DNA of 64,000 nucleotides from the NCBI RefSeq assembly GCF_056746865.1, contig NZ_JBWKMP010000003.1; one strand, given 5' to 3'. The position numbers were made by a program, and so were the translations under genes. Below are positions 3,006-58,790 of this stretch, piece after piece. Source of the DNA: a plasmid. Each line of letters opens with the position of its first letter. The stretch's first letter is position 1. The notes under the pieces are model-generated. The model was given only the letters and a program-made list of their open reading frames with translations. It did not search any database and had not been told where the DNA came from.

Positions 3006-4043
3006 TTACCAGAGTTTTGCCGCGTACATCGTTTGTGTGAATGTGTACCCATAGCGTTCTTCAACGCTTTTACCGTATTTTTTCCTGGCTTCAGTAAGGC
3101 GGATGCCTGTCAGGTCATCGCCGGAGGCAATCATAACTTCCAGTAGTTCCAGGTCCATTTTATCCAGCCTTGCCATTGCATCTTTAGCCTCTTGAATTTT
3201 CCGGCTAACGATCTGGTGTATGGCTGGATCGGCTTCGGCCAGCATTTTATCTGATTTGTTTTTTAAACTCTGATTGCGGATATCAATGTTTCTCAGGATA
3301 TATGACTTCACGACGTAGCTTGGCTGCTGCTTTTCCAGATCACGAACCCGATAAAGGTCAAATTCGCCGAGAAGTCCGCACGGAAGCGGTTTAATGCCAG
3401 TGTAAATGGTAAGGGTGCGGCGCTCACCAACGTTGTTAACAACGGGAATCTCTGTGTTTGCTTTTTTTGCAAAGATCAGCGCACCGTGCGTACCCACTCT
3501 GAAGCGTGAAAGTCCATTGTTGCCCTCAATATTGGTGGTAATCACCACATCGGTATAACCTTCTTTTCTTGCGCGGTATACCTCGCCCTCACGTTCAGCG
3601 GCGAAGAATCTGCGTTCTTCTTCAAGCGCACCGACAACCTGTGAAAATATCCTGTTTTTCATGCTTTTCTTTATAGTTTTATCGTATTTTTTCAGCAGGT
3701 CTTCGCGCGTAAATGTTCTCGTTGTGGTTGCGCTTTGCATAACGATGTGCGTACTCTGATTAGTATCCTCAACAATGAATGGGATCGGTAAATAAACCGA
3801 CTCAACAATGTTTGAGGCTTTGTCATCATCCTTGCGACACAGATCAACAAAGGCTTTCCATTCGGCTATGCATTTTTCAGCTTCTTCTAATACAGCCGGA
3901 TCATGTGTTAATGCAACATGGCGAAATTCCTCGCCAACATAACTGGTATCATGGAAAACAGAGTTTGCGACCACCAGCTCTTTCCACCTTTCAGCGGTTT
4001 GCAGGAACCGTTTGTACTCATTCTCGATCGACTTCTTACTCAT
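3006..4043 (-). CDS. hypothetical protein in the c1 immunity-repressor slot
   Basis: Start taken at the internal ATG (plus 4041-4043) with AGGAA Shine-Dalgarno; operator-like motifs lie just upstream; position between pacB and rox/dre matches P1 c1; no recognised domain. Confidence 0.5.
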   Translation of the reverse strand: MSKKSIENEYKRFLQTAERWKELVVANSVFHDTSYVGEEFRHVALTHDPAVLEEAEKCIAEWKAFVDLCRKDDDKASNIVESVYLPIPFIVEDTNQSTHIVMQSATTTRTFTREDLLKKYDKTIKKSMKNRIFSQVVGALEEERRFFAAEREGEVYRARKEGYTDVVITTNIEGNNGLSRFRVGTHGALIFAKKANTEIPVVNNVGERRTLTIYTGIKPLPCGLLGEFDLYRVRDLEKQQPSYVVKSYILRNIDIRNQSLKNKSDKMLAEADPAIHQIVSRKIQEAKDAMARLDKMDLELLEVMIASGDDLTGIRLTEARKKYGKSVEERYGYTFTQTMYAAKLW

Positions 4044-4423: not shown

Positions 4424-5452
4424 ATGGGTGAACTAGTTATCTCCGGCGGTTCTGGTGGTTTTCTGCGCGATATTGGCACCGAATACCAGGAAGCTGCAAA
4501 AAACTTTATGCAGTTCATGAACGACCAGGGAGCTTATGCTCCAAATACGCTTCGAGATCTCCGTCTGGTGTTTCATTCCTGGGCGCGGTGGTGTAATTCG
4601 CGCCAGCGCCCCTGGTTCCCGATTACGCCGGAAATGGCCCGCGAGTATCTTCTCCAGTTGCATGAGGCCGATCTGGCCTCGACCACCATTGATAAGCACT
4701 ATGCCATGCTTAACATGCTGCTTTCGCAATGTGGCCTCCCGCCGCTGTCGGACGATAAAAGTGTGTCTCTGGCCATGCGGCGCATCCGGCGCGAAGCGGC
4801 AACGGAAAAAGGCGAGCGAACAGGCCAGGCTATACCGTTGCGGTGGGATGATCTGAAATTGCTCGACGTGTTGCTGTCCCGTTCCGAGCGGCTGGTGGAC
4901 CTGCGCAATCGGGCGTTTCTCTTCGTGGCATACAATACCCTGATGCGTATGTCAGAAATCTCGCGCATCCGCGTCGGAGATCTGGACCAAACAGGTGACA
5001 CTGTAACGCTGCATATTTCACACACGAAGACCATCACGACCGCCGCCGGACTTGATAAGGTGCTTTCTCGTTACACTACCGCCGTACTGAACGACTGGCT
5101 GGAGGTGTCCGGACTTCGAGAACATCCGGACGCGGTGCTATTCCCGCCAATACACCGCAGTAATAAGGCCAGAATCACGACAACGCCCCTTACTGCACCT
5201 GCAATGGAGAAAATATTCAGCGATGCCTGGGGGTTGCTGAACAAACGAGATGCCACGCCGAACAAAGGAAGATACCGGACGTGGACAGGCCATAGTGCGC
5301 GTGTTGGTGCGGCAATTGATATGGCTGAGAAACAGGTGTCAATGGTCGAGATCATGCAGGAAGGTACATGGAAAAAGCCCGAAACACTTATGCGATATTT
5401 GCGCCGTAGCGGGGCATCCGTTGGTGCAAATAGTCGCCTGATGGACTCATAA
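4424..5452 (+). CDS. dre: Cre-family tyrosine recombinase Dre
   Basis: 342 aa, colinear with Cre from the N-terminus; RHR and catalytic-Tyr region present (TGHSARVGAA..LMRYLR); paired with the rox site. Confidence 0.85.
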   Translation: MGELVISGGSGGFLRDIGTEYQEAAKNFMQFMNDQGAYAPNTLRDLRLVFHSWARWCNSRQRPWFPITPEMAREYLLQLHEADLASTTIDKHYAMLNMLLSQCGLPPLSDDKSVSLAMRRIRREAATEKGERTGQAIPLRWDDLKLLDVLLSRSERLVDLRNRAFLFVAYNTLMRMSEISRIRVGDLDQTGDTVTLHISHTKTITTAAGLDKVLSRYTTAVLNDWLEVSGLREHPDAVLFPPIHRSNKARITTTPLTAPAMEKIFSDAWGLLNKRDATPNKGRYRTWTGHSARVGAAIDMAEKQVSMVEIMQEGTWKKPETLMRYLRRSGASVGANSRLMDS

Positions 5453-5629: not shown

Positions 5630-5869
5630 ATGACCGGACTTGATGCCGTTCCCGTATTTACCCTCGAAAAAAACTGGCGAAATCTGGAGGAAGCTGAACG
5701 CTACGTCCGGAAAGTAACCGTCATTGCTGCTGAAAAACTCCTGGCCCACTATCAGGAAAATTATCGCGCTATGACCGAGAAAATTAACCATGTTTTCACT
5801 CGCCCCACCAGCGGCTTCATTGCCCCTGATGCGAATGCCGGGCGCTATCCGGCAAGGGGGCGCAAATGA
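5630..5869 (+). CDS. hypothetical protein (start uncertain)
   Basis: The ORF track's TTG start at 5525 overlaps the dre terminator, so the first in-frame ATG at 5630 is used; stop overlaps the next gene. Confidence 0.3.
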   Translation: MTGLDAVPVFTLEKNWRNLEEAERYVRKVTVIAAEKLLAHYQENYRAMTEKINHVFTRPTSGFIAPDANAGRYPARGRK

Positions 5870-18451: not shown

Positions 18452-19447
18452 TCAGTTATTGAACGTGATCACTCCGCGCTCGATGGCGAAGTCGAAAAGC
18501 TGGTTGGCGGCTACGTAAAGGCGTATGCCATGTGCTTTTTCCCATGCCCGGACATCGTTTTCTGCGCTTCTGGCGCATTCATCGCAAAGAGGAACGGCCC
18601 AGCGATCGTGTTCGTTTAACGAGCGGGCGCGGTACATGAACGGGTGATTAACTTTGCCTCCGCATCCGATGCACGGACGAGAAATCACAAACCGGAGATA
18701 AGCCGGGCTTTTACCGAGAACCGCTTTTGGTCGGCGCATATACAGCAGGCCGGAATCCTCATCTACAGACAGGTTGACGATCTGCTCTGCGGTTATGTCC
18801 ACCAGCTCACGGGTGCTGTGCTCCCAGGTGATATCCGATTCTTTCAGTGTGCCGGTAGGGATTTCCTGTTTTGGCTGACAAAATGCAATGCGACCGGCTT
18901 CATCTGGCAGCTCGTCTTTCAGATTCCGGCGAATGGCCCAAAAAGTGAGTTCAACCATGCTCAGATCGCGTTCTGGCGGTAGTTTTAACTCGCTCGCAGC
19001 CCAGTTCATAACCCAGTTGGCACGATTCAGGGATAACTGGTCATCCAGCTTGCCGTACCCCTTCATCATGTATTCCGCATCATGCTTCCAGCACAGGCGA
19101 ACGGCAGAGCCGTTATAGAAATGAGTGGTTAGCTGGTGGCTGCAATCGCGCTTATCGTGCGCCTGGCAATCGTGGATATTGGAACTTACCCAATGAACAA
19201 GCGAATCTTCACCGCCTAATGCGTTAAATACGCGCTCGCTTTGAAAAAATGCTTTCAGAGACTGGTTGGCAACCAGCGAATAGTTCAGATCCACTACGCC
19301 ATCTGGCGTGTTTTCAGCCTGTTCGCGCGGAAGTGGAGAGATAATGAAACGGCGACCTGCGCCAATGTAGTTGCTGGTGGGCTTGTCTACCGGAAAGACA
19401 GCCACACCAGCTCCGTTTACGAAATGAGGTGTGATTATTGCACTCAT
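18452..19447 (-). CDS. DUF968-like protein with a C-terminal Ref/HNH-like Cys-His cluster
   Basis: RPCIGCGG..H....VPLCDEC at the C-terminus, similar in pattern to the ref-like gene at 24641. Confidence 0.45.
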   Translation of the reverse strand: MSAIITPHFVNGAGVAVFPVDKPTSNYIGAGRRFIISPLPREQAENTPDGVVDLNYSLVANQSLKAFFQSERVFNALGGEDSLVHWVSSNIHDCQAHDKRDCSHQLTTHFYNGSAVRLCWKHDAEYMMKGYGKLDDQLSLNRANWVMNWAASELKLPPERDLSMVELTFWAIRRNLKDELPDEAGRIAFCQPKQEIPTGTLKESDITWEHSTRELVDITAEQIVNLSVDEDSGLLYMRRPKAVLGKSPAYLRFVISRPCIGCGGKVNHPFMYRARSLNEHDRWAVPLCDECARSAENDVRAWEKAHGIRLYVAANQLFDFAIERGVITFNN

Positions 19448-21039: not shown

Positions 21040-21803
21040 TGGCTGCCTCCTTTGCGAAGCTGGTCGGCGAACAAACGTACACTAGACGCTTCACTGCGTA
21101 GAAACTTAACGGCATAATCAAAACCACCTCGTTCTGCGTCGTCTGCTCCGTTGTCGAGGTTATCTGCGTACATCTCTACCCCCTGCGCACGTACTTCAGC
21201 CAGGAAAGCATCGGTGGCTGGGGTATCAACACGGATACTGTCGCGCAAGATGAAAAATGCATTGAGCATTCCAGTCTCTGGCACTTCATCCTGATGCTTC
21301 TCATACGCATCAAGAGCCTTCATCATCTCAGCTCCGAATGGTTGAGGGTGCACAGACTTCAGCTCCGCATTCTCCGCCGCCAGCACCGCGCGTTCGCTCT
21401 CCAGTTCTGTAATGCGCCGTCTTGCAGCATCCAGTTCAATCGACAATTTTCCCAACTGCTCTTTATGCTTCTTGTATTCCTGATATGCGTGCCAAGACTG
21501 ACCTTTGCGCACACTATCCGTGATATCAGTAATCTGTTCTGGTGTTAGCGTGGTCAGTGGCTGTGCTGGGAAAATCAGCACTTTCCCAGCATCCCAATCA
21601 AAACCCACCTGAATTGACTGAACCTCAACTGATGGTGTTGAACCGATGCGACCAGGCGAATGAACAACGATCGTTACATCCATATCGCGACGATGGCTGT
21701 GGTTGTTGGACAAAATACGATTCACCAACTCCGAGAATTTGGAAAATTTCATGCTGATTCCCTTTGCTCTTCCTGGATAATGTTGTTGCAATCTTTCACG
21801 CAC
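21036..21803 (-). CDS. accessory protein, [13 protein letters not shown] / QLRKGGSQ paralog family
   Basis: 255 aa; motif shared with 15909-16571. Confidence 0.5.
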
Positions 21804-22072
21804 TCGTTGCAGATGAAAACGTTGTCCCCGGCAATTAACTTTTTAACGGTGTGCTGGGATTTGTTGCAGAAGCTGCAATAAAGCGTTGGACTGGCTGATA
21901 TGGATGGTGCGCCAGATGTCAGCCGCGCGATGTCGTTCTTGCGACGCAATATCACACGGCTGCACTCGACCAGCATCTCCGGGGATATATCCTCCTCCGT
22001 GGCGAGCGCCTCCAGACGTTCGAGCAAGCGAAATACTTTTTCCTGGGTGATTGCAGAATGCGATGTGGTCAT
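21749..22072 (-). CDS. ClpX N-terminal zinc-binding-domain-like protein
   Basis: [36 protein letters not shown] closely mirrors the ClpX C4 zinc-binding domain; AAGGAGAG Shine-Dalgarno; no AAA+ module. Confidence 0.5.
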
Positions 22073-22073
22073 C

Positions 22074-22724
22074 TCACTCTCCTTTGATGCGAATGCCAGC
22101 GGCACGGGAGTCATTCCATCGCTTTACTTCTTCACGAATTACGTCAATGCATTCTTTCGAATCCATTAGGTAATCTTCATCAAAAAGCCTTTCCTGTTCG
22201 TTTTCTATCGCAACAATGATTGCTTCAACTAACTTTTGTGCCTGAGAACCACTTTCTAACTCTGCAATGCGCTTCTCTGCGGCTTCCAGCTTCTCGCGCA
22301 TATCGTCAACGTACTCGACCAGAGATCCGCCAGCAGGAATTTCGCACTCCTCGACCAGTTGGAAGTAGATATCAGCTGCGGCCCGTGTGTTGCTATGCCT
22401 AGCGTCGCCCATCTCACCTTCACGAAGAGCATCGCGTTCGGCGGTAAGATTGGCTATTTTGCTGTCTTTGCCTTCAAGCTCAACGCGCAGCTTCCCTACC
22501 GTTAGCGCAATATCCTCGTTCTCCTGGTCGCGGCGTTTTATGTATTGCTGGTTTCTTTCCCGTTCATCCAGCAGCGCCAGCACAATGTGTGGCGTTATCA
22601 AGGACTCAAATTCGGCAACAGCTTGCTCACCTCGCTTGTAATTCTTAATCCCACCTAAATCTTTCGCGTTCTGTGCCGCCTCACGCAGCGCCAGTGTGTC
22701 GATGTCGATGTCGATGTTGCTCAT
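22074..22724 (-). CDS. Ea22-like family protein
   Basis: Shares the [35 protein letters not shown] block and C-terminal AAGIRIKGE with 15160-15912. Confidence 0.55.
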
Positions 22725-29511: not shown

Positions 29512-29842
29512 TCAACTCAGTAGCTTTGTTAACTCCCTTAATACCAGGTAGAAGAGTAACAAAAATACTAACGCCAGTATTTGCGTGGTCAACGAGGCGT
29601 TCATAAACAGAACAATTAGCTTTAACAATTCGAGAATAACGTCCATGTCATTCACACTATTTAATTTTTAATCTACAGCCAGCAAACAATGAAGCTGGCC
29701 CCCGCATAAAGATTAATGAAAGTCACTTGTCACCAGTGAGGGGATTTATGAACCACATCCCCCTGAACTGGTGGACTGTCTGTTTCTCGCATTTCACACC
29801 CTGCATACAGTTCCCCCCAGGTTATGACTGTGAGGAACTGTT

Positions 29843-51304: not shown

Positions 51305-51856
51305 ATGACACCTTCTGAACTATTAGAAAGCGTTAAAGCGCGATTCAATCCTCTTCTTGTACGGGAAGAGGAAACACTGAAAGCATTCCTGCTCAAAGCG
51401 TTGACTACTTACCAGGACAGGGCAGGCGTAGTTAAGGCGTTAAAGCTGGAGAAATCAGACGGCACGGCGATCCCTGTTCCGGATGATTATCTGTCTCTGG
51501 TCCACGTCACTGACCACAACGGGCTTCTGGTTTACGCCGACGAGATTGCCGGTTTTGTCGAACTTGAGCTTACCGGTTCTGAACGCTGGCCTTTCAAGAT
51601 GCAATACCTTGTAAATCTCCGCGATCGCAACCTGGATGAGTGGCAAGTGCCACCTGCGATTATCGGAATGCTTGAGGAATATCTTGAAGCACTTATCAAT
51701 GTCCGCAACGTTGCCCGCCAGCGAAGGGCGTCAATTGATGGCAAGTTTGATTACTCCGATCTTCCTGATGAGGCGACGCTCTACGCGCGTGTTCAGGAGA
51801 TAGAAGAAAAAATGGCAGCCAACCGGGCCATTATCCCTGGTGCTACCATTTTTTAA
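51305..51856 (+). CDS. hypothetical structural protein
   Basis: 183-aa ORF in the structural block. Confidence 0.4.
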   Translation: MTPSELLESVKARFNPLLVREEETLKAFLLKALTTYQDRAGVVKALKLEKSDGTAIPVPDDYLSLVHVTDHNGLLVYADEIAGFVELELTGSERWPFKMQYLVNLRDRNLDEWQVPPAIIGMLEEYLEALINVRNVARQRRASIDGKFDYSDLPDEATLYARVQEIEEKMAANRAIIPGATIF

Positions 51857-51869
51857 CACGGAGGGCTAC

Positions 51870-52577
51870 GTGAGTATTTTTAGTGCTACAACGCAAACGC
51901 TAGCCAGTGCGGTATCGTTTAGCGCGAAATCGTTCACCAGCAACCTTATCAGCGACATTCTGGATAGAGCGGTGTCTGGCAGTGGCGTTAGTGGGAGCTA
52001 CGGCAATGACATCGCTTACGGAAAGAACGTAGTTGCTACGGCTATGCGTATCCGCTATGCCCAGGGCTGGCAGTGGACGGTAGACGTAGACGGATTAAGC
52101 GGCTTTGATATGTTCGTTAAGGACATCACTTACAGTAGCGGGAATATTGAAACAGAAAGCAAAATCATTGGTAGCGTCGAGTTCAATAAGCCAACGCACG
52201 TAACCGCCGGGCCGGTAACAATGACGGTCAGAGACACAGAAGACGGCAAAATAATGAATTGGTTCAAAGAGCGCCGCGCTCGTGTAACCAATAGCGATGG
52301 TACGCTAAACCTGCCGCCAGATTATCTCATGAATATCAGGCTATACCGCGTTACACAGGAAGGCGGGAAAGAGCTGGAAGAGGAAATGCGTGTATTTCCG
52401 ACTCAGATAGGAGAGATCAGCCGCTCACGTGATCAGGTGTCCGAATTCTTGTCCTATCCGATCACGTTCCAGCGATACACATCTGCCGGTTCCGGCCTGT
52501 CCGCATTAGTCAATGGAGCTGCTGGTTTAGCAACAAGCGCACTTAAAAGCGCCGCCAGCAACGTGATCAAGTTTTGA
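51870..52577 (+). CDS. hypothetical structural protein
   Basis: GTG start after GGAGGG. Confidence 0.35.
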   Translation: MSIFSATTQTLASAVSFSAKSFTSNLISDILDRAVSGSGVSGSYGNDIAYGKNVVATAMRIRYAQGWQWTVDVDGLSGFDMFVKDITYSSGNIETESKIIGSVEFNKPTHVTAGPVTMTVRDTEDGKIMNWFKERRARVTNSDGTLNLPPDYLMNIRLYRVTQEGGKELEEEMRVFPTQIGEISRSRDQVSEFLSYPITFQRYTSAGSGLSALVNGAAGLATSALKSAASNVIKF

Positions 52578-52619
52578 AATGCAATATTAAAGTGCGAGAA
52601 GGTGGGGAAGGGGCAAACT

Positions 52620-52910
52620 TGAGGGCAATATCTACACCTGCTGTTTACGTCAATGATGGCATTTTTTACACATCACAACAAAATCAACGCGTTACAACCA
52701 TAAAACATTCAACAGTAGTGCGATAAAAATAGCTATAGCATACGATGCCATCTGAGGGTGATTTTTACACATTCCTTATTAATCAATAAATTACAAATAA
52801 TGTTAGCCGTTAAAGATCCAACCAACTAACTAATGATGTAAGAATTGCCCTCAATCTCCCATCTTTAAGGGCAAATCCTACACCTACAGAGAGGTGTAGA
52901 AATTGCCCTT
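52620..52910. repeat. incA-like iteron cluster downstream of repA
   Basis: About five ~21-bp copies in both orientations, for example TTGAGGGCAATATCTACACCT (52620) and TAAGGGCAAATCCTACACCT (52868). Confidence 0.5.
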
Positions 52911-53664
52911 AAGACTGCTGATAGGTGAATTTTATTTTTGTAACTCTGCCACCTTCTGTAACCTCTGAGAAAACTATTTTCATTTTTGTGTTTTTTTCGA
53001 TTTCAGCTACAGCTTTTGCCAGAAAGCTTCTCTTAAATTCGGCGTACCGTTGATAGCTTTTGGGAAGACCATAACGCTCCCGCATCCATTCAACGCCAAG
53101 TATAGCGAAGCCGCTCCCATCATCCTTTCTATACTGGCATAAGGACTCATAAAGCCGCATAGAATAAGGGTTTGTCAGGCGAGACACTTCAGTAAAATTC
53201 AGCCTCGTGAACCTCTTATCAAGCAGAGTAAAAAACGGCATGAGATATGGATTCAGATGAATAATGTAAGTCCCCCGGCGTGGTGAGTAAGCCTCCTTAA
53301 TCATCCAGGGATAAGACTCATAACTGTCTTCTGATTCGGTTGATTCATCAGGGTTATATATCGTGACTTTCTTCTCACTAAGTCCGGAGATAGCTTTACG
53401 AATATCCTTGCTGGCTTCAGCAGAGGGCAAATTATACATCTCTGCATATTCGTTGACCGTCAACTCACAGGCACCTGAACCAAGAACGCCATCCTTAGAA
53501 GCATAGCGAAGTCTTCCCACCACAATAAACAACAGTCGCTTTTGGTCGCGTGTCAGGTGATAAGCCGCCTCTGTGATCTCATTGGCCTGCGCCAAGCTAC
53601 GGCTAATTGGTGTCGCTGATTCAATCAGACTGACGGCTTTTGCCGTTAATTCCGCTCTGTTCAT
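52909..53664 (-). CDS. repA: RepA-type plasmid replication initiator (start uncertain)
   Basis: Call is contextual: no sequence motif was checked; sits between two iteron clusters with a DnaA box and AT-rich tract upstream. About 250 aa from ATG 53664. Confidence 0.55.
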   Translation of the reverse strand: MNRAELTAKAVSLIESATPISRSLAQANEITEAAYHLTRDQKRLLFIVVGRLRYASKDGVLGSGACELTVNEYAEMYNLPSAEASKDIRKAISGLSEKKVTIYNPDESTESEDSYESYPWMIKEAYSPRRGTYIIHLNPYLMPFFTLLDKRFTRLNFTEVSRLTNPYSMRLYESLCQYRKDDGSGFAILGVEWMRERYGLPKSYQRYAEFKRSFLAKAVAEIEKNTKMKIVFSEVTEGGRVTKIKFTYQQS

Positions 53665-53688
53665 AACCCTGTGTGATCCTTCAAATGG

Positions 53689-53807
53689 TGAGGGCAATTT
53701 TTACATCACTTTGAGGGCAATTACTACACCTTTTGAGGGCAAATCTTACACCTGCTGAGGGCAAATCTTACACCTCAATAGCTTAATTGAGGGCAAATCT
53801 TACACCT
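53689..53807. repeat. origin iterons (incC-like): five direct ~21-bp repeats
   Basis: TGAGGGCAA(A/T)T(C/T)TTACACCT at about 53689, 53711, 53733, 53755 and 53787. Confidence 0.55.
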
Positions 53808-53839
53808 TGGTCCTCTACAAGCCCCGCCACCCCTGGCCT

Positions 53840-53960
53840 CCGCGATGCCTAAAAAGGATCTAAAAAGGATTAAAAAGAGAAAAAGGTTTATAAAAATACT
53901 CTGTGGATATGTGAATTGCGTCACTTAAGGTGTAAAAATCACCCTCAATAGTTGCTGTTC
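53840..53960. other. AT-rich region with DnaA-box-like site and one inverted iteron
   Basis: AAAAAGGAT repeats; TGTGGATAT at 53902-53910 (reverse complement ATATCCACA); inverted iteron near 53929; GATC sites. Confidence 0.4.
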
Positions 53961-54050
53961 GATCGACAAAGATCCTTATTCAATACTCCCACAAATCACA
54001 CACTCCCTATCCTCTGAAAAACTAACTGAACCTAGCTTTCGGAGGAATCC

Positions 54051-54875
54051 TTGAACATTCCCAAATTCCCATTGCCTTCACAGCCTGAAATAGAAATTCA
54101 GTTTCATGCACCTACTGTGAAAGATGCCCTGAAATATTCAGACATCAATCCGGCAGAAGACGAGGCAACCACAACAGAATACCTCAATGCTATGCAAGAC
54201 GGCGAAATTAACGACAGCTCAAACTGGACAGTTCAGGATCGCAGAACCGCGCTTTGGTGGATCTTTGTTAATTCCAGGCCTGATGCCGTCATGACTTACT
54301 CATACGAGTGTGGTCACTGTGGAAACGTTCATCACGCAGATATTAACCTTTCAGACCTTGCCGAAACGGTAGAAATCCTGACTGTCCCGCCGTTTATTAA
54401 AACTATGGTCCCTATAAACGGAGTACCAACCGAGTGGACGCTTAAACCACTAACAGGGAAAGGAGCTGAATTGCTTGAGCGTATGCGCGCCACTTTGCCT
54501 GATATGAAAACTCCAGAGTACAGTGCTGAGGTTGCTCGTCTCCGCATAGCTGAGTTGGCCTTGTGTACATCTCTGAACGACGATCCAGAAGACTTCACAC
54601 AAGCTGCAAACAGACGATTCGATATCATTGAAAACATGGCTCTGGAAACCGAGTTTACCCCTCTGGTAGCTCGCATTCAGCTCATGCAGAAAGACCTTCG
54701 CCACGGCTTAAAAATGGCTATTGAACGAGGCACAAGCCGCCTGATCCTACCGCCACAACGCTGCAAAAACGCTAAGGAGGGTGCAGACGTGACTACCACG
54801 CTGTACGCCCCATTTCTCAATAGAGAGTTTATCCCATCAATTAGATCTGAATGGATGGCTAACCATTATCAATAA
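54051..54875 (+). CDS. hypothetical protein
   Basis: 274 aa; TTG start after GGAGG; contains CGHCG. Confidence 0.35.
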   Translation: MNIPKFPLPSQPEIEIQFHAPTVKDALKYSDINPAEDEATTTEYLNAMQDGEINDSSNWTVQDRRTALWWIFVNSRPDAVMTYSYECGHCGNVHHADINLSDLAETVEILTVPPFIKTMVPINGVPTEWTLKPLTGKGAELLERMRATLPDMKTPEYSAEVARLRIAELALCTSLNDDPEDFTQAANRRFDIIENMALETEFTPLVARIQLMQKDLRHGLKMAIERGTSRLILPPQRCKNAKEGADVTTTLYAPFLNREFIPSIRSEWMANHYQ

Positions 54876-54926: not shown

Positions 54927-57900
54927 GTGGCGGGCACTCCATATGGAAAAAGCACTGGAAGAGAAATACAAAGCCCACGCCAAAAAAACAGGGTGATCAC
55001 CGCCGATGTAAGTGAGGTTATTTTGAACGATAAAAAAGACCGAATAGCGATAATCGACGCAATACAAACGGCAAACGCGAAAGAGCTAGCTGCGCTTTCA
55101 GAAATAAAAAAAGCACTTGAGTCTTACGGACGCAATCCTGATACCAGCGACGCACCACAAGGACGCGTAAGTCGTCGCCTGGCCCGAACAGGGAAAGCAG
55201 GGGCGCAACGCAACAGTTTCACACAGGGGCCGTATAAAGACCGGCTCCCTACCAGGAAACAGAGATTACGTATAAACAACACTAGCGAGATAGATAATCC
55301 GCAAAAAGCAGCAGCAGATCACCGCACCGCTCATTCGGAATCAAAAACAGCACCGCTGGCTGAAGGCAAAGCCACGAAGTCATCACCTGAGCGCATTCAA
55401 TCGCTCACTCCTGACATTCAGCCTGCAAGGCAAGAACAACCAGTTAGAGAAAACCAGAGCATCGCTGGTGCACCGTTACGGGATAGCAACGGACGATTTG
55501 CCTCTCAGAAAAAAAACGAGGATCTCGCACGCCAGAATGAGCTACGCGCACAGGCAAAACTACAGGTTGGGTTCCTGCGAAAACTCGGTTCCATTATGGG
55601 GGTTGATGGTTCAGGGAAAGCCGACGATGGAGCTGTAACCGATGCTGCCGGGGTAGGGGCTGGTGGTCCACTATGGATGGCAGCACGGGGCGTATTTGAT
55701 ATCAGCCGCGAGATTACTGGTAAGGCTAAATCATTGAAAGAATGGATAGATAATGGCAACGACAAGGCGGCTGGCGCACCGGTGGTCGCAAAAGCCCCCG
55801 CCATTACTTACCCGGCACCTGACAATGAAAGGAAGACTCCAGATAACGCGCCCGGTTCAGCAAAGGCATTTACTGAAGCCGTTAAAGAAAAATCTGTGCG
55901 TGCGATCGAAGAACAAACGAAAGTTCTTCAACGCAACGACAGCCAGATAATTGATGAGCTGGAAACTGTATCCGAAGAGATCCGGAAGCTAAGAAAGTCC
56001 CAGGAGAGTGGGCTAAAACTGAGCGACCTCCTCGGCGGTGGCAGATTACGCACCAAAATATCCCCTACACGCGGTCGTAGCAGTGCACGTGGTGGCAACA
56101 CGGGCCGCACTGGAGACAGTAAAGAAAACAAGGGCAAGAAGGGAAAAAACACCAGCAAACCTACTGAGACGGGCAGGAGTCAGGAAGGCAAAGAGGGGAA
56201 AAAAAATCAGCCAGGCAAAAACAACAGTGCGGGCGAGGAAAAAAATCGGACAAAAAATGCTGGTGGGAACGAGGGTAGTACCTCACCAAAATCATCGGGT
56301 GATAAATCTTCAGTTAAAACCAGAGCAGGTAAGGTCACTGAAGAAAGTGTAGCCAAAACGGCGACTGGTGGAGCGGCAGGGAAAGACGCTGGTAAAGCGG
56401 CAACTTCCGCTGGGGAAAGCCTTACCAGGAAAGAGGCGGGTAAGGTTGCCGTTGCCACTGGTGAAAACATCGCGAAAAAAGAAGCTGGAAAAGTGGCTCT
56501 CAAAGCTGCCGGAGGTGTTGCCGCAAGGGCCGGATTCAGGGCGATTCCAGTCATCGGCCAGGTGGCTATGGTTGGTTATGATGCCGTAGACGGCTACAGC
56601 GACACAGAAGCGCAGAGGGCGACTTATAACCTGAAGGAAGGGCAGGACGTTACAACACAGCAAAAGAGCGCCTACGCCGCTGCTAACGTCCTGGATATGG
56701 GCGGTCTGGTGACGGGAGCGGCTAACCTCATTGGCGAGGGGATGTCCGCGCTAGGCTTTGAAGGTGTCGGACAAAAACTTCAGAGTCTTGATACCAGCAA
56801 TATCGCTCGCGGCATAAATAGTTCTATCGACGCGTCGAAGAACGCATTCAGCAGCCTAAAAGAATCGTTCTCATCAAGCAGCGAAGGCACTGCGCAGGTT
56901 AAGAAAGCCGTTGAAGATGGCACCAAGCAAACGGTAGCCGCAATTAATGATCTGGCCCGACAGCTACAGGGCGGGCGCAGAGGTGAGGATGGCGTGGGTG
57001 AACACGGCTACAAATCGCCAGACGAATTTAAAGCGCCTGAAAAAAATACAATAACGGCTGATCTGAATATAGGCGGAAGCAACGCCAAGAACAGGAATTA
57101 CCGGAATAACAACCTGGGGAACCTGGTTTTTGCAAATCAGGAGGGGGCGGTACTGGAAGCGCCGAACGCGAAAGGCGAACAGCGTTTTGCGCGGTTTAAT
57201 ACGCCCGAAGAAGGGATTCGGGCATTGGCAAACCAGGTATCGAGTTATTACAACGGTACAAGTGCTGCCGCCGGGTATCAGAAGCTGCAAACAGTATCCA
57301 GCATCATTTCAAAATGGGCACCACCAACAGAGAACAACACCAATCAGTACATTGAAAACGTCAGCAAATATCTCGGGGTATCCCCCAACGATAAAATAGA
57401 CGTTAGCAACCCTGAAGTTATGACGCACCTTGTTCGCGCCATTGCGACGAAGGAGGGGGGTAACCCGGCGGTTAACAACAATTTCATCAAAACAGCTCTT
57501 GGTTCATTCAACGCTAAAACTGGGCGTTGGGAAGGGCAATTCAATGATGAAACGCTGGAACACATTAATAAAATCCAGAAGGAAAAGGGCGGTCCTCTAA
57601 TCGCTCGCAACTCCCAATATAGTGTCGGTAGCAAAGTCAAATACGCCAACGGCTCATCTTCTGCTATTCCTGCGTCAAGCGTAGCCCAGGCTGTAATGCC
57701 TAGCCCTACTGACGTGGTTCAACACGCACAGGCAGCTAAAAAACCGAAGGCAGCTCAACAGGAAAATGCCCAAGCGATCAGCCACGCGAAAGCTAGTGGC
57801 AATTCTTCCGCCGCAGCCGGATTGACGGAGCGGTTAATGAGTGCAGACGGTGTTGGGGGCGTCATCGCCGGGATAGTTGGGGGAGATCCCAATATGGGGC

Positions 57901-58790
57901 TAAATCTCGGCCCTGTCAGTTCTCCGGAAGAGATGTCCTCGTTAGCAGCAAAAGCCAAGCAATTGGATAAGTTTCTTGTTGAAAAAATATCCAGAGCAAC
58001 GGGCAAAAACTTTAGTTTCCAGAAGGCGGAACAGATCGCCGATATCACTACGGCTATACAGCAAAAGCGCAACGTTAACCGCGATACAGAAACCATTGGC
58101 CTGCTTCCGGAGAGTCCGGCAACCATCAGCGAGAAGCGTGCCACATCGACACCGGCGGGTGTGCAGATGTACGACAACGGCTACAAGGTGGTTGAAGGTG
58201 AGGACAGGGGCTTCTTTGGCTCGCTATTTGATTCAACTGTGTCAGGGCTTAACCAGGTAGGCTCCGCCGTCCTCCCCGCCGTTGGAGATAACCTCTCGCG
58301 ACTTGTGGGCGGTATTGATAGCACCGGAATGTTAAATGACTTTGTATTGCAGTCCTCTGGACAGAATACCGATGTTGCTCGCGCTATTAGTCCGTTAACA
58401 AGGAGTGTTGGCGGTTGGCTGAATGGTGGCATACAGAAAACGGCGGATACGATCAGGGACACAACTGGCGCAATCAATCAAAGCCTGTTTGCTTCGGGCG
58501 TGGCTGCTAAAGAACCGTTCCTTGCAATGCCTCCGCAGCTACCAATCGTCACGGACCTCGCACGAAGCGGAATAAGGCAGATGCTAACAACAGATACCGC
58601 AAATAACGATCCGGCTATGTTGAAAGCACTGGAGAACGTTTATTCCGTTCTTAAAGAGATTCTTGGCGTAAGCAAAGACAACCGCAAAGGCGATCAGGAC
58701 AAAGTTGTGAACACATCACAACCACAACCTCGTCAGCGTGCCAGCACGACTATCAATGACCCATCTCTTGACAAATTACTGGAGGATTAA
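54927..58790 (+). CDS. large virion-associated protein (tape-measure or injected-protein candidate; start uncertain)
   Basis: 1287 aa; central Gly/Lys-rich low-complexity tract; conserved-looking block NLGNLVFANQEGAVLEAPNAKGEQRFARFNTPEEGIRALANQV; no in-frame ATG near the 5' end. Confidence 0.45.
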   Translation: MAGTPYGKSTGREIQSPRQKNRVITADVSEVILNDKKDRIAIIDAIQTANAKELAALSEIKKALESYGRNPDTSDAPQGRVSRRLARTGKAGAQRNSFTQGPYKDRLPTRKQRLRINNTSEIDNPQKAAADHRTAHSESKTAPLAEGKATKSSPERIQSLTPDIQPARQEQPVRENQSIAGAPLRDSNGRFASQKKNEDLARQNELRAQAKLQVGFLRKLGSIMGVDGSGKADDGAVTDAAGVGAGGPLWMAARGVFDISREITGKAKSLKEWIDNGNDKAAGAPVVAKAPAITYPAPDNERKTPDNAPGSAKAFTEAVKEKSVRAIEEQTKVLQRNDSQIIDELETVSEEIRKLRKSQESGLKLSDLLGGGRLRTKISPTRGRSSARGGNTGRTGDSKENKGKKGKNTSKPTETGRSQEGKEGKKNQPGKNNSAGEEKNRTKNAGGNEGSTSPKSSGDKSSVKTRAGKVTEESVAKTATGGAAGKDAGKAATSAGESLTRKEAGKVAVATGENIAKKEAGKVALKAAGGVAARAGFRAIPVIGQVAMVGYDAVDGYSDTEAQRATYNLKEGQDVTTQQKSAYAAANVLDMGGLVTGAANLIGEGMSALGFEGVGQKLQSLDTSNIARGINSSIDASKNAFSSLKESFSSSSEGTAQVKKAVEDGTKQTVAAINDLARQLQGGRRGEDGVGEHGYKSPDEFKAPEKNTITADLNIGGSNAKNRNYRNNNLGNLVFANQEGAVLEAPNAKGEQRFARFNTPEEGIRALANQVSSYYNGTSAAAGYQKLQTVSSIISKWAPPTENNTNQYIENVSKYLGVSPNDKIDVSNPEVMTHLVRAIATKEGGNPAVNNNFIKTALGSFNAKTGRWEGQFNDETLEHINKIQKEKGGPLIARNSQYSVGSKVKYANGSSSAIPASSVAQAVMPSPTDVVQHAQAAKKPKAAQQENAQAISHAKASGNSSAAAGLTERLMSADGVGGVIAGIVGGDPNMGLNLGPVSSPEEMSSLAAKAKQLDKFLVEKISRATGKNFSFQKAEQIADITTAIQQKRNVNRDTETIGLLPESPATISEKRATSTPAGVQMYDNGYKVVEGEDRGFFGSLFDSTVSGLNQVGSAVLPAVGDNLSRLVGGIDSTGMLNDFVLQSSGQNTDVARAISPLTRSVGGWLNGGIQKTADTIRDTTGAINQSLFASGVAAKEPFLAMPPQLPIVTDLARSGIRQMLTTDTANNDPAMLKALENVYSVLKEILGVSKDNRKGDQDKVVNTSQPQPRQRASTTINDPSLDKLLED

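Follow-up and report, generated by a model that had tools for sequence, protein, structure and literature searches.

The segment at 52620-53960 of the 64,000-nucleotide plasmid sequence analysed here (contig NZ_JBWKMP010000003.1; hereafter the window) is a genuine but ordinary replicon of an already known kind. It is very probably a theta-type, low-copy plasmid-prophage replicon of a D6-like phage-plasmid, and a sister lineage of the F ori2/RepE (RepFIA) replicon. On sequence grounds F ori2, with its incB-repE-incC arrangement, is a closer reference than P1 oriR, because the initiator is homologous to RepE, no P1-type iteron is present, and the origin aligns with F ori2. An earlier note on this DNA had matched the region to P1 oriR and its incC-repA-incA order: the general layout agrees with that description, but the family does not, initiator, iterons and origin all being nearer to those of F.

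The note had also proposed a RepA-type initiator, and a profile search bears this out: the repA product matches Pfam Rep3_N (E 1.6e-28) and Rep3_C (E 6.4e-15). Its top matches among solved structures are those of F RepE (1rep, 2z9o and 7uxy; E ~1e-73), to which it is 50% identical over 228 residues by BLASTP (E 2e-86), and it shares 98.4% identity with the annotated initiator of D6. Against the NCBIfam RepE equivalog model NF010305, RepA scores 281.4 bits and so falls under the curated cutoff of 342: chaperone dependence, autorepression by dimers and other such traits of F RepE are thus not simply transferable. Initiators in PLSDB likewise show a gap between the window clade (at least 95% identity) and IncFIA RepE (~51%). 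With P1 RepA, BLASTP yields no significant match, the top alignment spanning 44 residues at E 0.056. P1 RepA is itself a marginal Rep_3 member by profile search (Rep3_N E 7.5e-5), and on that weak membership the two proteins are distantly homologous. The repA reading frame is intact and is at least 95% identical in 108 plasmids. A promoter-tool scan of the minus strand found no sigma-70 promoter for repA; a relaxed scan returned nothing but TGTAAAAAT in the proximal iteron, a sequence similar to an extended -10.

Upstream of repA lie five direct 20-bp iterons (consensus TGAGGGCAAATCTTACACCT; spacing 23, 22, 22 and 32 bp), at exactly the coordinates, 53689-53807, where the earlier note had placed five repeats of ~21 bp. 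A weight matrix was trained on these five only and was then used to find independent sites. Eight more sites score at least 18.7, all within 52620-53947, bringing the total to 13: five upstream, six downstream, one intragenic and one beyond the DnaA box. The real 64-kb window contains 14 sites scoring at least 18, with 13 of them in the 1.3-kb replicon, and only 11 of 300 whole-window shuffles contain any site at that score. Searches with the exact consensus (up to three mismatches) gave six matches against an expectation of none. A lone iteron-like site at 19427-19446 (score 18.5) was set aside as a probable chance match, given that 11/300 shuffles reach a score of 18. The site falls in a stretch 95% identical to D6, so that conservation there is uninformative.

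Table 1. Features of the replicon and its flanking genes (positions in the window; scores from the five-iteron weight matrix).
Feature	Position	Strand	Remarks
tub, tail tube	51840-52577		
Downstream iteron 6, farthest from repA: TGAGGGCAATATCTACACCT	52620-52639	+	score 25.7
Downstream iteron 5, degenerate: TGATGGCATTTTTTACACAT	52654-52673	+	score 18.7
Second AT-rich stretch, beside downstream iteron 4	52750-52824		24-26% GC
Downstream iteron 4, GGGTGA variant: TGAGGGTGATTTTTACACAT	52753-52772	+	score 18.8; position conserved
Downstream iteron 3, inverted relative to upstream array	52834-52853	-	score 29.6; conserved
Downstream iteron 2, left arm of convergent pair	52866-52885	+	score 27.5
Downstream iteron 1, right arm of convergent pair, overlaps repA stop codon	52892-52911	-	score 25.7
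repA	52909-53664	minus	251-aa Rep_3 (WH1+WH2) initiator, RepE-like clade
Intragenic iteron-like site AGAGGGCAAATTATACATCT, coding strand ATGTATAATTTGCCCTC	53422-53441	+	score 22.0
Upstream iteron 1	53689-53708	+	24 nt from ATG; carries TGTAAAAAT on repA strand, extended -10-like
Upstream iteron 2	53712-53731	+	consensus search and weight matrix
Upstream iteron 3	53734-53753	+	exact consensus match
Upstream iteron 4	53756-53775	+	exact consensus match
Upstream iteron 5	53788-53807	+	exact consensus match; 32 bp from iteron 4
GC-rich spacer, 42 bp, iterons to AT-rich tract	53808-53849	.	66% GC at 53800-53849
AT-rich tract, 51 bp, presumed DNA unwinding element	53850-53900	.	20% GC at 53850-53899
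DnaA box ATATCCACA	53902-53910	-	one mismatch from TTATCCACA
Outer iteron beyond DnaA box, GGGTGA variant, inverted relative to five-iteron array	53928-53947	-	score 23.2
pmgB	54051-54875		
sit, tail injection transglycosylase	54927-58790		

Behind repA, where about five iterons in mixed orientation had been reported, there are six (52620-52911), three of them degenerate. The two nearest the gene form a convergent pair, a 90% complementary inverted repeat with arms of 21 nt and a spacer of 6 nt; an iteron at or adjoining the rep stop codon is found also in F and in the relatives L011, L013, L015, L017 and L019. Position is retained farther out as well: D6 and four other plasmids each have a site as far from the repA stop as iteron 6 is, and the position of iteron 5 is kept in all six D6-like loci despite diverged surroundings. 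Between the window and D6 the downstream sites are 88% identical, against 54% outside the sites in the diverged spacer (p 7e-11). The intragenic site is conserved at 16 of 17 nucleotides across five lineages whose pairwise nucleotide identity is 60-78%, and conservation at third codon positions of repA is highest there. The outer iteron is 95% complementary to downstream iteron 4 (53928 and 52753, respectively); it is identical in D6 and four other plasmids, while L013 carries three sites at the equivalent place. Two other candidates in the downstream region were rejected. A 50-aa ORF in the spacer (52574-52726) was not taken as a gene, its sequence being unconserved in D6, and searches for RNA families gave sub-threshold matches only, among them a eukaryotic miRNA model on the hairpin of the convergent pair (28 bits, the gathering score being 84).

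The AT-rich tract and DnaA-like box described in the earlier note are both present beyond the upstream iterons. On the repA strand, 10-11-mers of the CCTTTTTA type are repeated in tandem about four times along the tract, which also includes a single Dam site (GATC, 53857-53860); the TTTTTAGATCC of the tract aligns with the TTTTTAGATCT 13-mer region of F ori2, and the tract is conserved in relatives. Relatives also have an equivalent of the GC-rich spacer, F and P1 having a less GC-rich stretch there. DnaA boxes with one mismatch number 12 in the window against 14 expected, and a single box is thus not above chance on its own. The position of the box is nevertheless conserved: D6, F ori2 and six more distant relatives all have one there, and in every relative examined a box is found at -238 to -263 relative to the ATG. 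The syntax is unchanged in relatives whose RepA is 55-78% identical; the variable iteron half has a form of its own in each (GGTGTAAG, TATGTAGA, GTGTATAA or TATGTACT), as would be expected of binding sites evolving together with the protein.

The replicon sits, as had been stated, between tail genes and a gene for a large virion protein, with tub on one side and pmgB/sit on the other, and runs antisense within this string of late morphogenesis genes. The window belongs to a D6-like phage-plasmid and shares 99.9% identity with the E. coli plasmid pMUB-MIN14-1 (MOB-suite type rep_cluster_1704). A near-identical sequence is present in 111 circular plasmids of PLSDB, ~78-95 kb in size, 108 of which are non-mobilizable. 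Phage D6 is a plasmid prophage whose record annotates the gene as putative plasmid replication initiation. The note had read the sequence as confirming a plasmid lifestyle; that lifestyle is upheld by these database matches (the circular plasmids and the D6 prophage), but the sequence alone does not confirm it. In the six D6-like records examined, rep_cluster_1704 is the only replicon typed. D6-like elements also carry the lytic replicon repL, so the RepA replicon is not their only origin. No partition operon lies behind repA; partition genes map to about 39.9-42.5 kb of the window, some 10 kb distant. Assignment to the PlasmidFinder type p0111 was rejected: in the literature that name denotes an alternative repA of P1-like elements, and the database does not include the D6 rep gene. 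Absence of the D6-like replication gene from common plasmid-typing databases is described in a 2025 preprint (10.1101/2025.09.12.675607), and association of D6-like rep genes with "iteron sequences" has already been reported in the literature.

From these features we infer that the replicon replicates autonomously, that RepA binds the sites, that initiation depends on DnaA and that each iteron cluster has its own role. RepA monomers would bind the five phased iterons at 53689-53807 and host DnaA the box at 53902-53910, and the two would jointly melt the adjacent AT-rich element (53850-53900), where the host replisome would be loaded. Low copy number would be maintained by the six downstream iterons (52620-52911), which would titrate RepA and to which origins would be looped or handcuffed; they correspond to incC of F and incA of P1. 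RepA would in addition repress its own promoter; with just 24 nt from the proximal iteron to the ATG, and with no inverted-repeat operator of the F type, this promoter would have to overlap with the iterons.

Could the element instead carry a P1 oriR-type replicon, with a RepA and iterons of the P1 (IncY) family? The similar layout (five iterons, a GC-rich spacer, GATC in the AT-rich tract, a mixed downstream cluster), the P1-related nature of the host element and the distant homology of P1 RepA, a weak Rep_3 member, all speak for it. Yet RepA aligns with P1 RepA over just 44 residues at E 0.056 and with F RepE at E 2e-86, there is no P1-type iteron in the window, the tract has one GATC rather than five, no parAB operon follows the gene and the genome position is different. 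The reading is barely credible, and sequence comparison already refutes membership of the P1 family. A decaying or secondary replicon, its repeats mere relics in an element that replicates from another origin, would fit the lack of a recognisable strong promoter, the three degenerate downstream sites and the presence of repL. Such decay is nevertheless very unlikely given an intact reading frame at least 95% identical in 108 plasmids, the fixed positions of 13/13 sites in divergent plasmids, the selective conservation of sites over spacer, and a replicon that is the only one typed in the six D6-like plasmid records examined.

The antisense placement from tub to pmgB raises another alternative, namely that the replicon or its downstream cluster serves mainly phage development, with RepA-bound iterons or the convergent palindrome insulating or terminating late tail transcription, or with the origin firing lytically. 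The palindrome, with its 21-nt arms, is indeed located at the 3' end of repA, where transcripts from tub would enter. No T-run follows it, however, and no intrinsic terminator is predicted there; its arms are full iterons like those of the origin, for which copy control is a simpler account; and in relatives the module is located elsewhere in the genome, away from tail genes. A P1-type late promoter is also wanting at the pmgB side: with the -22 boxes of annotated P1 late promoters (AAGTGACTT type) as query, positions 53918 (+) and 53926 (-) match at 7/9 with no usable -10, and the one strict match in the whole window is at 29728. A developmental role thus appears most improbable, and we retain the plasmid-prophage replicon related to F as the preferred reading.

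It is possible, if doubtful, that the D6 clade represents a distinct operator-less subtype of RepE replicon with control features undescribed for F or P1, among them an intragenic RepA-binding iteron selected at the DNA level and a convergent pair straddling the stop codon. Given the antisense placement of the whole module among tail genes in this element, late transcription might then shut down replication in the plasmid mode, or read-through in lysogens might be stopped by iterons with RepA bound. The occurrence in relatives (though not in the window) of P1-type iterons beside RepE-type ones is a hint of cross-talk or incompatibility among phage-plasmids that share a cell. These results matter mainly for annotation and typing, D6-like phage-plasmids being widespread in E. 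coli, Shigella and Salmonella, and leave the present view of plasmid replication unchanged. The minimal replicon fragment would be ~52580-53960, with DnaA and probably the DnaK chaperones as expected host needs. The likely incompatibility determinants of the replicon, a sister of F RepFIA with an iteron specificity of its own, are the two iteron clusters.

P1 oriR and the replicon described here are both plasmid replicons of P1-group phage-plasmids, and both are ordered as DnaA box, AT-rich tract, spacer, five iterons, rep gene and downstream iterons in mixed orientation; in both, the iterons reach almost to the rep start, and a GATC lies in the AT-rich core. The components nonetheless differ. 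The P1 iterons are of the 19-bp GATGTGTGCTGGAGGGAAA type (from the annotated record) and are unrelated to those of the window, in which the P1-type iteron ATGTGTGCTGGAGGGAAA is found nowhere at up to three mismatches. Five GATC sites, in heptamers, occupy the AT-rich tract of P1, against one in the window; the P1 core has tandem DnaA boxes rather than one imperfect box, and P1 repA is followed by nine downstream iterons rather than six. Unlike P1 oriR, the present replicon has neither DnaA boxes in the leader nor an adjacent parAB-parS, and it occupies a different genomic position.

In D6 the gene (orf42, 'replication initiation protein', NC_050154) likewise lies between tub and pmgB. The 13-site iteron map recurs at identical offsets there and in four other plasmids, and the DnaA box, AT-rich tract and outer iteron of D6 are identical to those of the window. 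The distal downstream cluster (window 52500-52830) is too diverged from D6 for megablast alignment, and D6 has a 48-bp segment with an inverted pair of P1-type iterons that the window clade lacks. R6K pi and pPS10 RepA belong to the same Pfam superfamily and follow the same general iteron logic as RepA, but are far more distant in sequence (weak matches to pi 2nra, E 4e-6, and to pPS10 RepA 1hkq, E 4.5e-4).

The oriS architecture of F has been described (PMC13028717). F RepE and the window RepA are homologous proteins of the same WH1+WH2 fold family, both of 251 aa, and the window has the F-type layout of ~22-bp phased direct iterons, a distal AT-rich 13-mer element and a DnaA box. The origin core and F ori2 can be aligned base for base, the shared order being DnaA box, TATTTTTATAA, TTTTTAGATC, a GC-containing spacer and iterons with TTGCCCTCA. 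This 9-bp half is all that the two iterons have in common, in the same orientation relative to the gene; the other half is GGTGTAAG in the window and TGTGACAA, one base further away, in F, and the window matrix gives no match scoring at least 14 on the F and P1 loci. The full F iteron sequence, which would imply IncFIA specificity, is not shared. F has four origin iterons and two DnaA boxes, against five iterons and one imperfect box in the window. F also has an inverted-repeat operator for repression by RepE dimers, which shares the 8-bp half TGTGACAA with its iterons. The F-type operator/promoter segment (~70 bp) is missing between the window iterons and the ATG, the F operator falling in an alignment gap; none of the clade members examined has the operator, which the F-type relative L021 does possess. 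The window also differs from F in its intragenic iteron-like site and in having no adjoining sopABC operon. As in the window, the F iteron cluster after the gene starts at the stop codon, although all five of its iterons are inverted, whereas those of the window are in mixed orientation.

On sequence grounds, the region is very likely best explained as an iteron-controlled theta replicon that would keep the prophage as a low-copy plasmid. Its initiator, RepA, contains the domains Rep3_N (E 1.6e-28) and Rep3_C (E 6.4e-15), and the solved structures closest to it are all F-plasmid RepE (1rep, 2z9o, 7uxy; E about 1e-73), those of R6K pi and pPS10 RepA being far weaker matches. E. coli plasmid pMUB-MIN14-1 and two more plasmids match the 1.55-kb replicon region at 99.9% identity, and phage D6 matches it at ~90% over 52831-54048. 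PLSDB holds 111 matching plasmids, 108 of them non-mobilizable, with sizes of ~78-95 kb among those listed; in six plasmids examined the sole replicon type is rep_cluster_1704. The earlier note's claim of an iteron replicon with a plasmid lifestyle holds.

Features of the repA replicon
Feature	Position	Strand	Details
repA ORF	52909-53664	minus	251 codons, ATG at 53664
Upstream iterons 1-5 (starts)	53689, 53712, 53734, 53756, 53788		direct repeats; spacing 23/22/22/32 bp; consensus TGAGGGCAAATCTTACACCT
Downstream-of-repA sites (n=6)	52620, 52654, 52753, 52834, 52866, 52892	+, +, +, -, +, -	matrix scan
Intragenic site	53422	+	matrix scan
Site past DnaA box	53928	-	matrix scan
AT-rich tract	53850-53900		20% GC; CCTTTTTA-type 10-11-mers; one GATC
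DnaA box	53902-53910	repA strand	ATATCCACA

The five direct iterons reported earlier were recovered directly 5' of repA, and a weight matrix was built from these only, so that all remaining sites constitute an independent test. The scan returned eight further sites scoring at least 18.7, all confined to 52620-53947; at a score of 18 or more there are 14 sites in the real window, 13 of them inside the 1.3-kb replicon; shuffling the 64-kb window 300 times gave any such site in only 11 cases. Downstream of repA the mixed orientation described by the earlier note stands (four sites oriented as origin iterons, two inverted), while its count of about five becomes six, with two extra sites, one intragenic and one outer. 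A lone iteron-like TGAGTGCAATAATCACACCT at 19427-19446 (minus strand; score 18.5), in the region equivalent to the D6 ppp-pdcB junction, is probably due to chance, given the score reached in shuffles and a D6 copy within locally 95% identical sequence. Two full iterons, 52866+ and 52892-, converge across the repA stop codon, with arms of 21 nt and a spacer of 6 nt. The resulting palindrome (52866-52911) is near-perfect; a canonical terminator is ruled out here by the lack of a T-run 3' of it, and the Rfam miRNA match that it yields is sub-threshold and spurious (28 bits vs a gathering score of 84).

Moving outward past the five iterons, a 66% GC spacer is followed by the AT-rich tract and DnaA box, both of which had been anticipated. 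The box alone is not above chance (12 found vs 14 expected in the window), though its position is conserved. Neither an inverted-repeat operator nor a promoter segment is present 5' of repA, the F operator corresponding to a gap in the F ori2 alignment, and iteron 1 lies only 24 nt from the ATG: the repA promoter must therefore, on this layout, overlap the iterons. A scan of the upstream region did not locate the promoter, save for an extended -10-like TGTAAAAAT within iteron 1. By homology, RepA monomers would occupy the five phased iterons and, jointly with DnaA at its box, open the AT-rich element; the cluster downstream of repA, perhaps together with the intragenic and outer sites, would limit initiation via titration and looping, a mode demonstrated for F incC (PMC13028717); and RepA on the proximal iterons would repress its own promoter. 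We infer all of these functional steps by homology.

Conservation extends beyond the window. The 13 sites occur at equal offsets from the repA stop in D6 and four further plasmids (E. coli, E. marmotae, Salmonella), and in the diverged downstream spacer the six sites are 88% identical between the window and D6 vs 54% for the remainder (Fisher p 7e-11). Six metagenomic and genomic relatives with RepA identities of 55-78% (L011, L013, L015, L017, L019, L020) share this syntax: the DnaA box lies between -238 and -263 relative to the ATG, the AT-rich tract has 2.5-22% GC, ACCTTTTTAGG is followed by a GC-rich spacer, and the array comprises four to six iterons, of which four or five are phased at 22 bp, and stops just short of the start codon. 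An iteron lies at or adjoining the stop codon in five of the six (none in L020), and the variable iteron half has a separate version in each. The single 52% relative examined, L021, carries iterons and an operator of the F type, which places the subtype boundary between about 55% and 52% RepA identity.

The intragenic site (53422-53441) reads ATG TAT AAT TTG CCC TC (M-Y-N-L-P-S) on the coding strand. Across five lineages (window/D6, L013, L015, L017, L019) with pairwise nucleotide identities of 60-78%, all but one of its 17 nt are invariant, and third-codon-position conservation within repA peaks here (0.69 vs a mean of 0.37); the site is not present in L011, L020, L021 or F. Near-invariant nucleotides and this third-position peak suggest selection at the DNA level, and hence a functional intragenic RepA site.

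D6 has the gene annotated as orf42 ('replication initiation protein ... putative plasmid replication initiation'), flanked by tub (tail tube) and pmgB/sit; PHROGs independently names the proteins flanking the window's replicon as tail tube protein, PmgB-like and tail injection transglycosylase, in agreement with the proposed location between tail genes and a large virion protein. The replicon is already known, being annotated in D6 and over 100 plasmid records; a literature search that did not include the D6 genome paper found no report of a D6 mini-replicon. Possible novelties are the clade's operator-less architecture, the conserved intragenic iteron and, in relatives only, P1-type iterons beside RepE-type ones. 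In L011 (78% RepA identity; an 87-kb P1-like contig), 179-bp tandem repeats 3' of the rep gene (4857-5286) each hold a P1-type iteron TTTCCCTCCAGCACACAC directly abutting a RepE-type iteron TGAGGGCAAAAATTACAT, and P1-iteron-like GCTGGCGGG/GCTGGAGGG motifs lie past the DnaA box (about 3670-3740). Just past the tub stop codon, D6 (5708-5756) and the D6-like plasmids L007, L008 and L009 carry a 48-bp segment, TTATGTGTGCTGGAGGGTTGCTCATTTCCCGTCAGCACCCACG, in which two P1-RepA-type (IncY) iterons stand in inverted orientation to each other where the RepE-type downstream cluster ends. Most D6-like plasmids have it; the window (about 52598) and its clade members L002 and L010 do not. The segment may act to titrate P1 RepA, or may be left over from a replicon swap.

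The same module occurs outside the tub-pmgB interval in L011, L012, L013 and L020 (55-78% RepA identity), for example with higB/HTH genes and a darB-like gene as neighbours, or immediately 5' of ddrB; the replicon module has therefore moved between genome positions. At least three of these contigs (L011, L012, L020) are P1-like, with ddrB-ParB or darB-like helicase genes near the module. In P1 (50000-53500) the morphogenesis gene string is also broken by an opposite-orientation replicon, there the lytic one (kilA-repL/oriL-rlfA-rlfB), at a different junction adjoining pmgF/bplB; D6 repL sits elsewhere (record 21331-22293).

The earlier note's interpretation, which matched the replicon to the P1 oriR layout, was right in kind and wrong as to the closest relative. 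RepA aligns with F RepE over 228 residues (50% identity, E 2e-86) and with P1 RepA over only 44 at best (E 0.056); the window contains no iteron of the P1 type, and membership in the P1 RepA/oriR family is rejected. P1 RepA itself matches Rep3_N marginally (E 7.5e-5), so that the two initiators share a superfamily yet are not close. Nor is the window's RepA a RepE equivalog by the NCBIfam model (281 bits; cutoff 342), and PLSDB identities show a gap between the window's clade (at least 95%, 108 records) and IncFIA RepE (~51%).

Aligned in the gene sense, the window origin and F ori2 have in common CAC(A/T)TATCCAC, TATTTTTATAA, TTTTTAGATC(C/T), a GC-containing spacer and iterons ending TTGCCCTCA, in agreement with the DnaA boxes, AT-rich region with 13-mer and four iterons of F oriS (PMC13028717). 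The iterons share, in identical orientation, the 9-bp half TTGCCCTCA (F: TGTGACAAATTGCCCTCA); the window's other half, GGTGTAAG, is unlike that of F and sits one base further away, which is why no F iteron scores with the window matrix. The AT-rich tract has one GATC in F, as in the window, vs five in P1. Downstream iterons number five in F, all inverted, and nine in P1 (split 6 + 3), compared with the 4 + 2 of the window, and P1 PrepA is annotated as overlapping iterons, the placement argued here for the repA promoter. In F and P1 the partition operon comes straight after the rep gene; in the window the partition genes (homologues of D6 StbA/ParM-like orf58-59 and ParA-like orf60-61, at about 39.9-42.5 kb) lie ~10 kb from the replicon. 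By family, the replicon is sister to F RepE/ori2.
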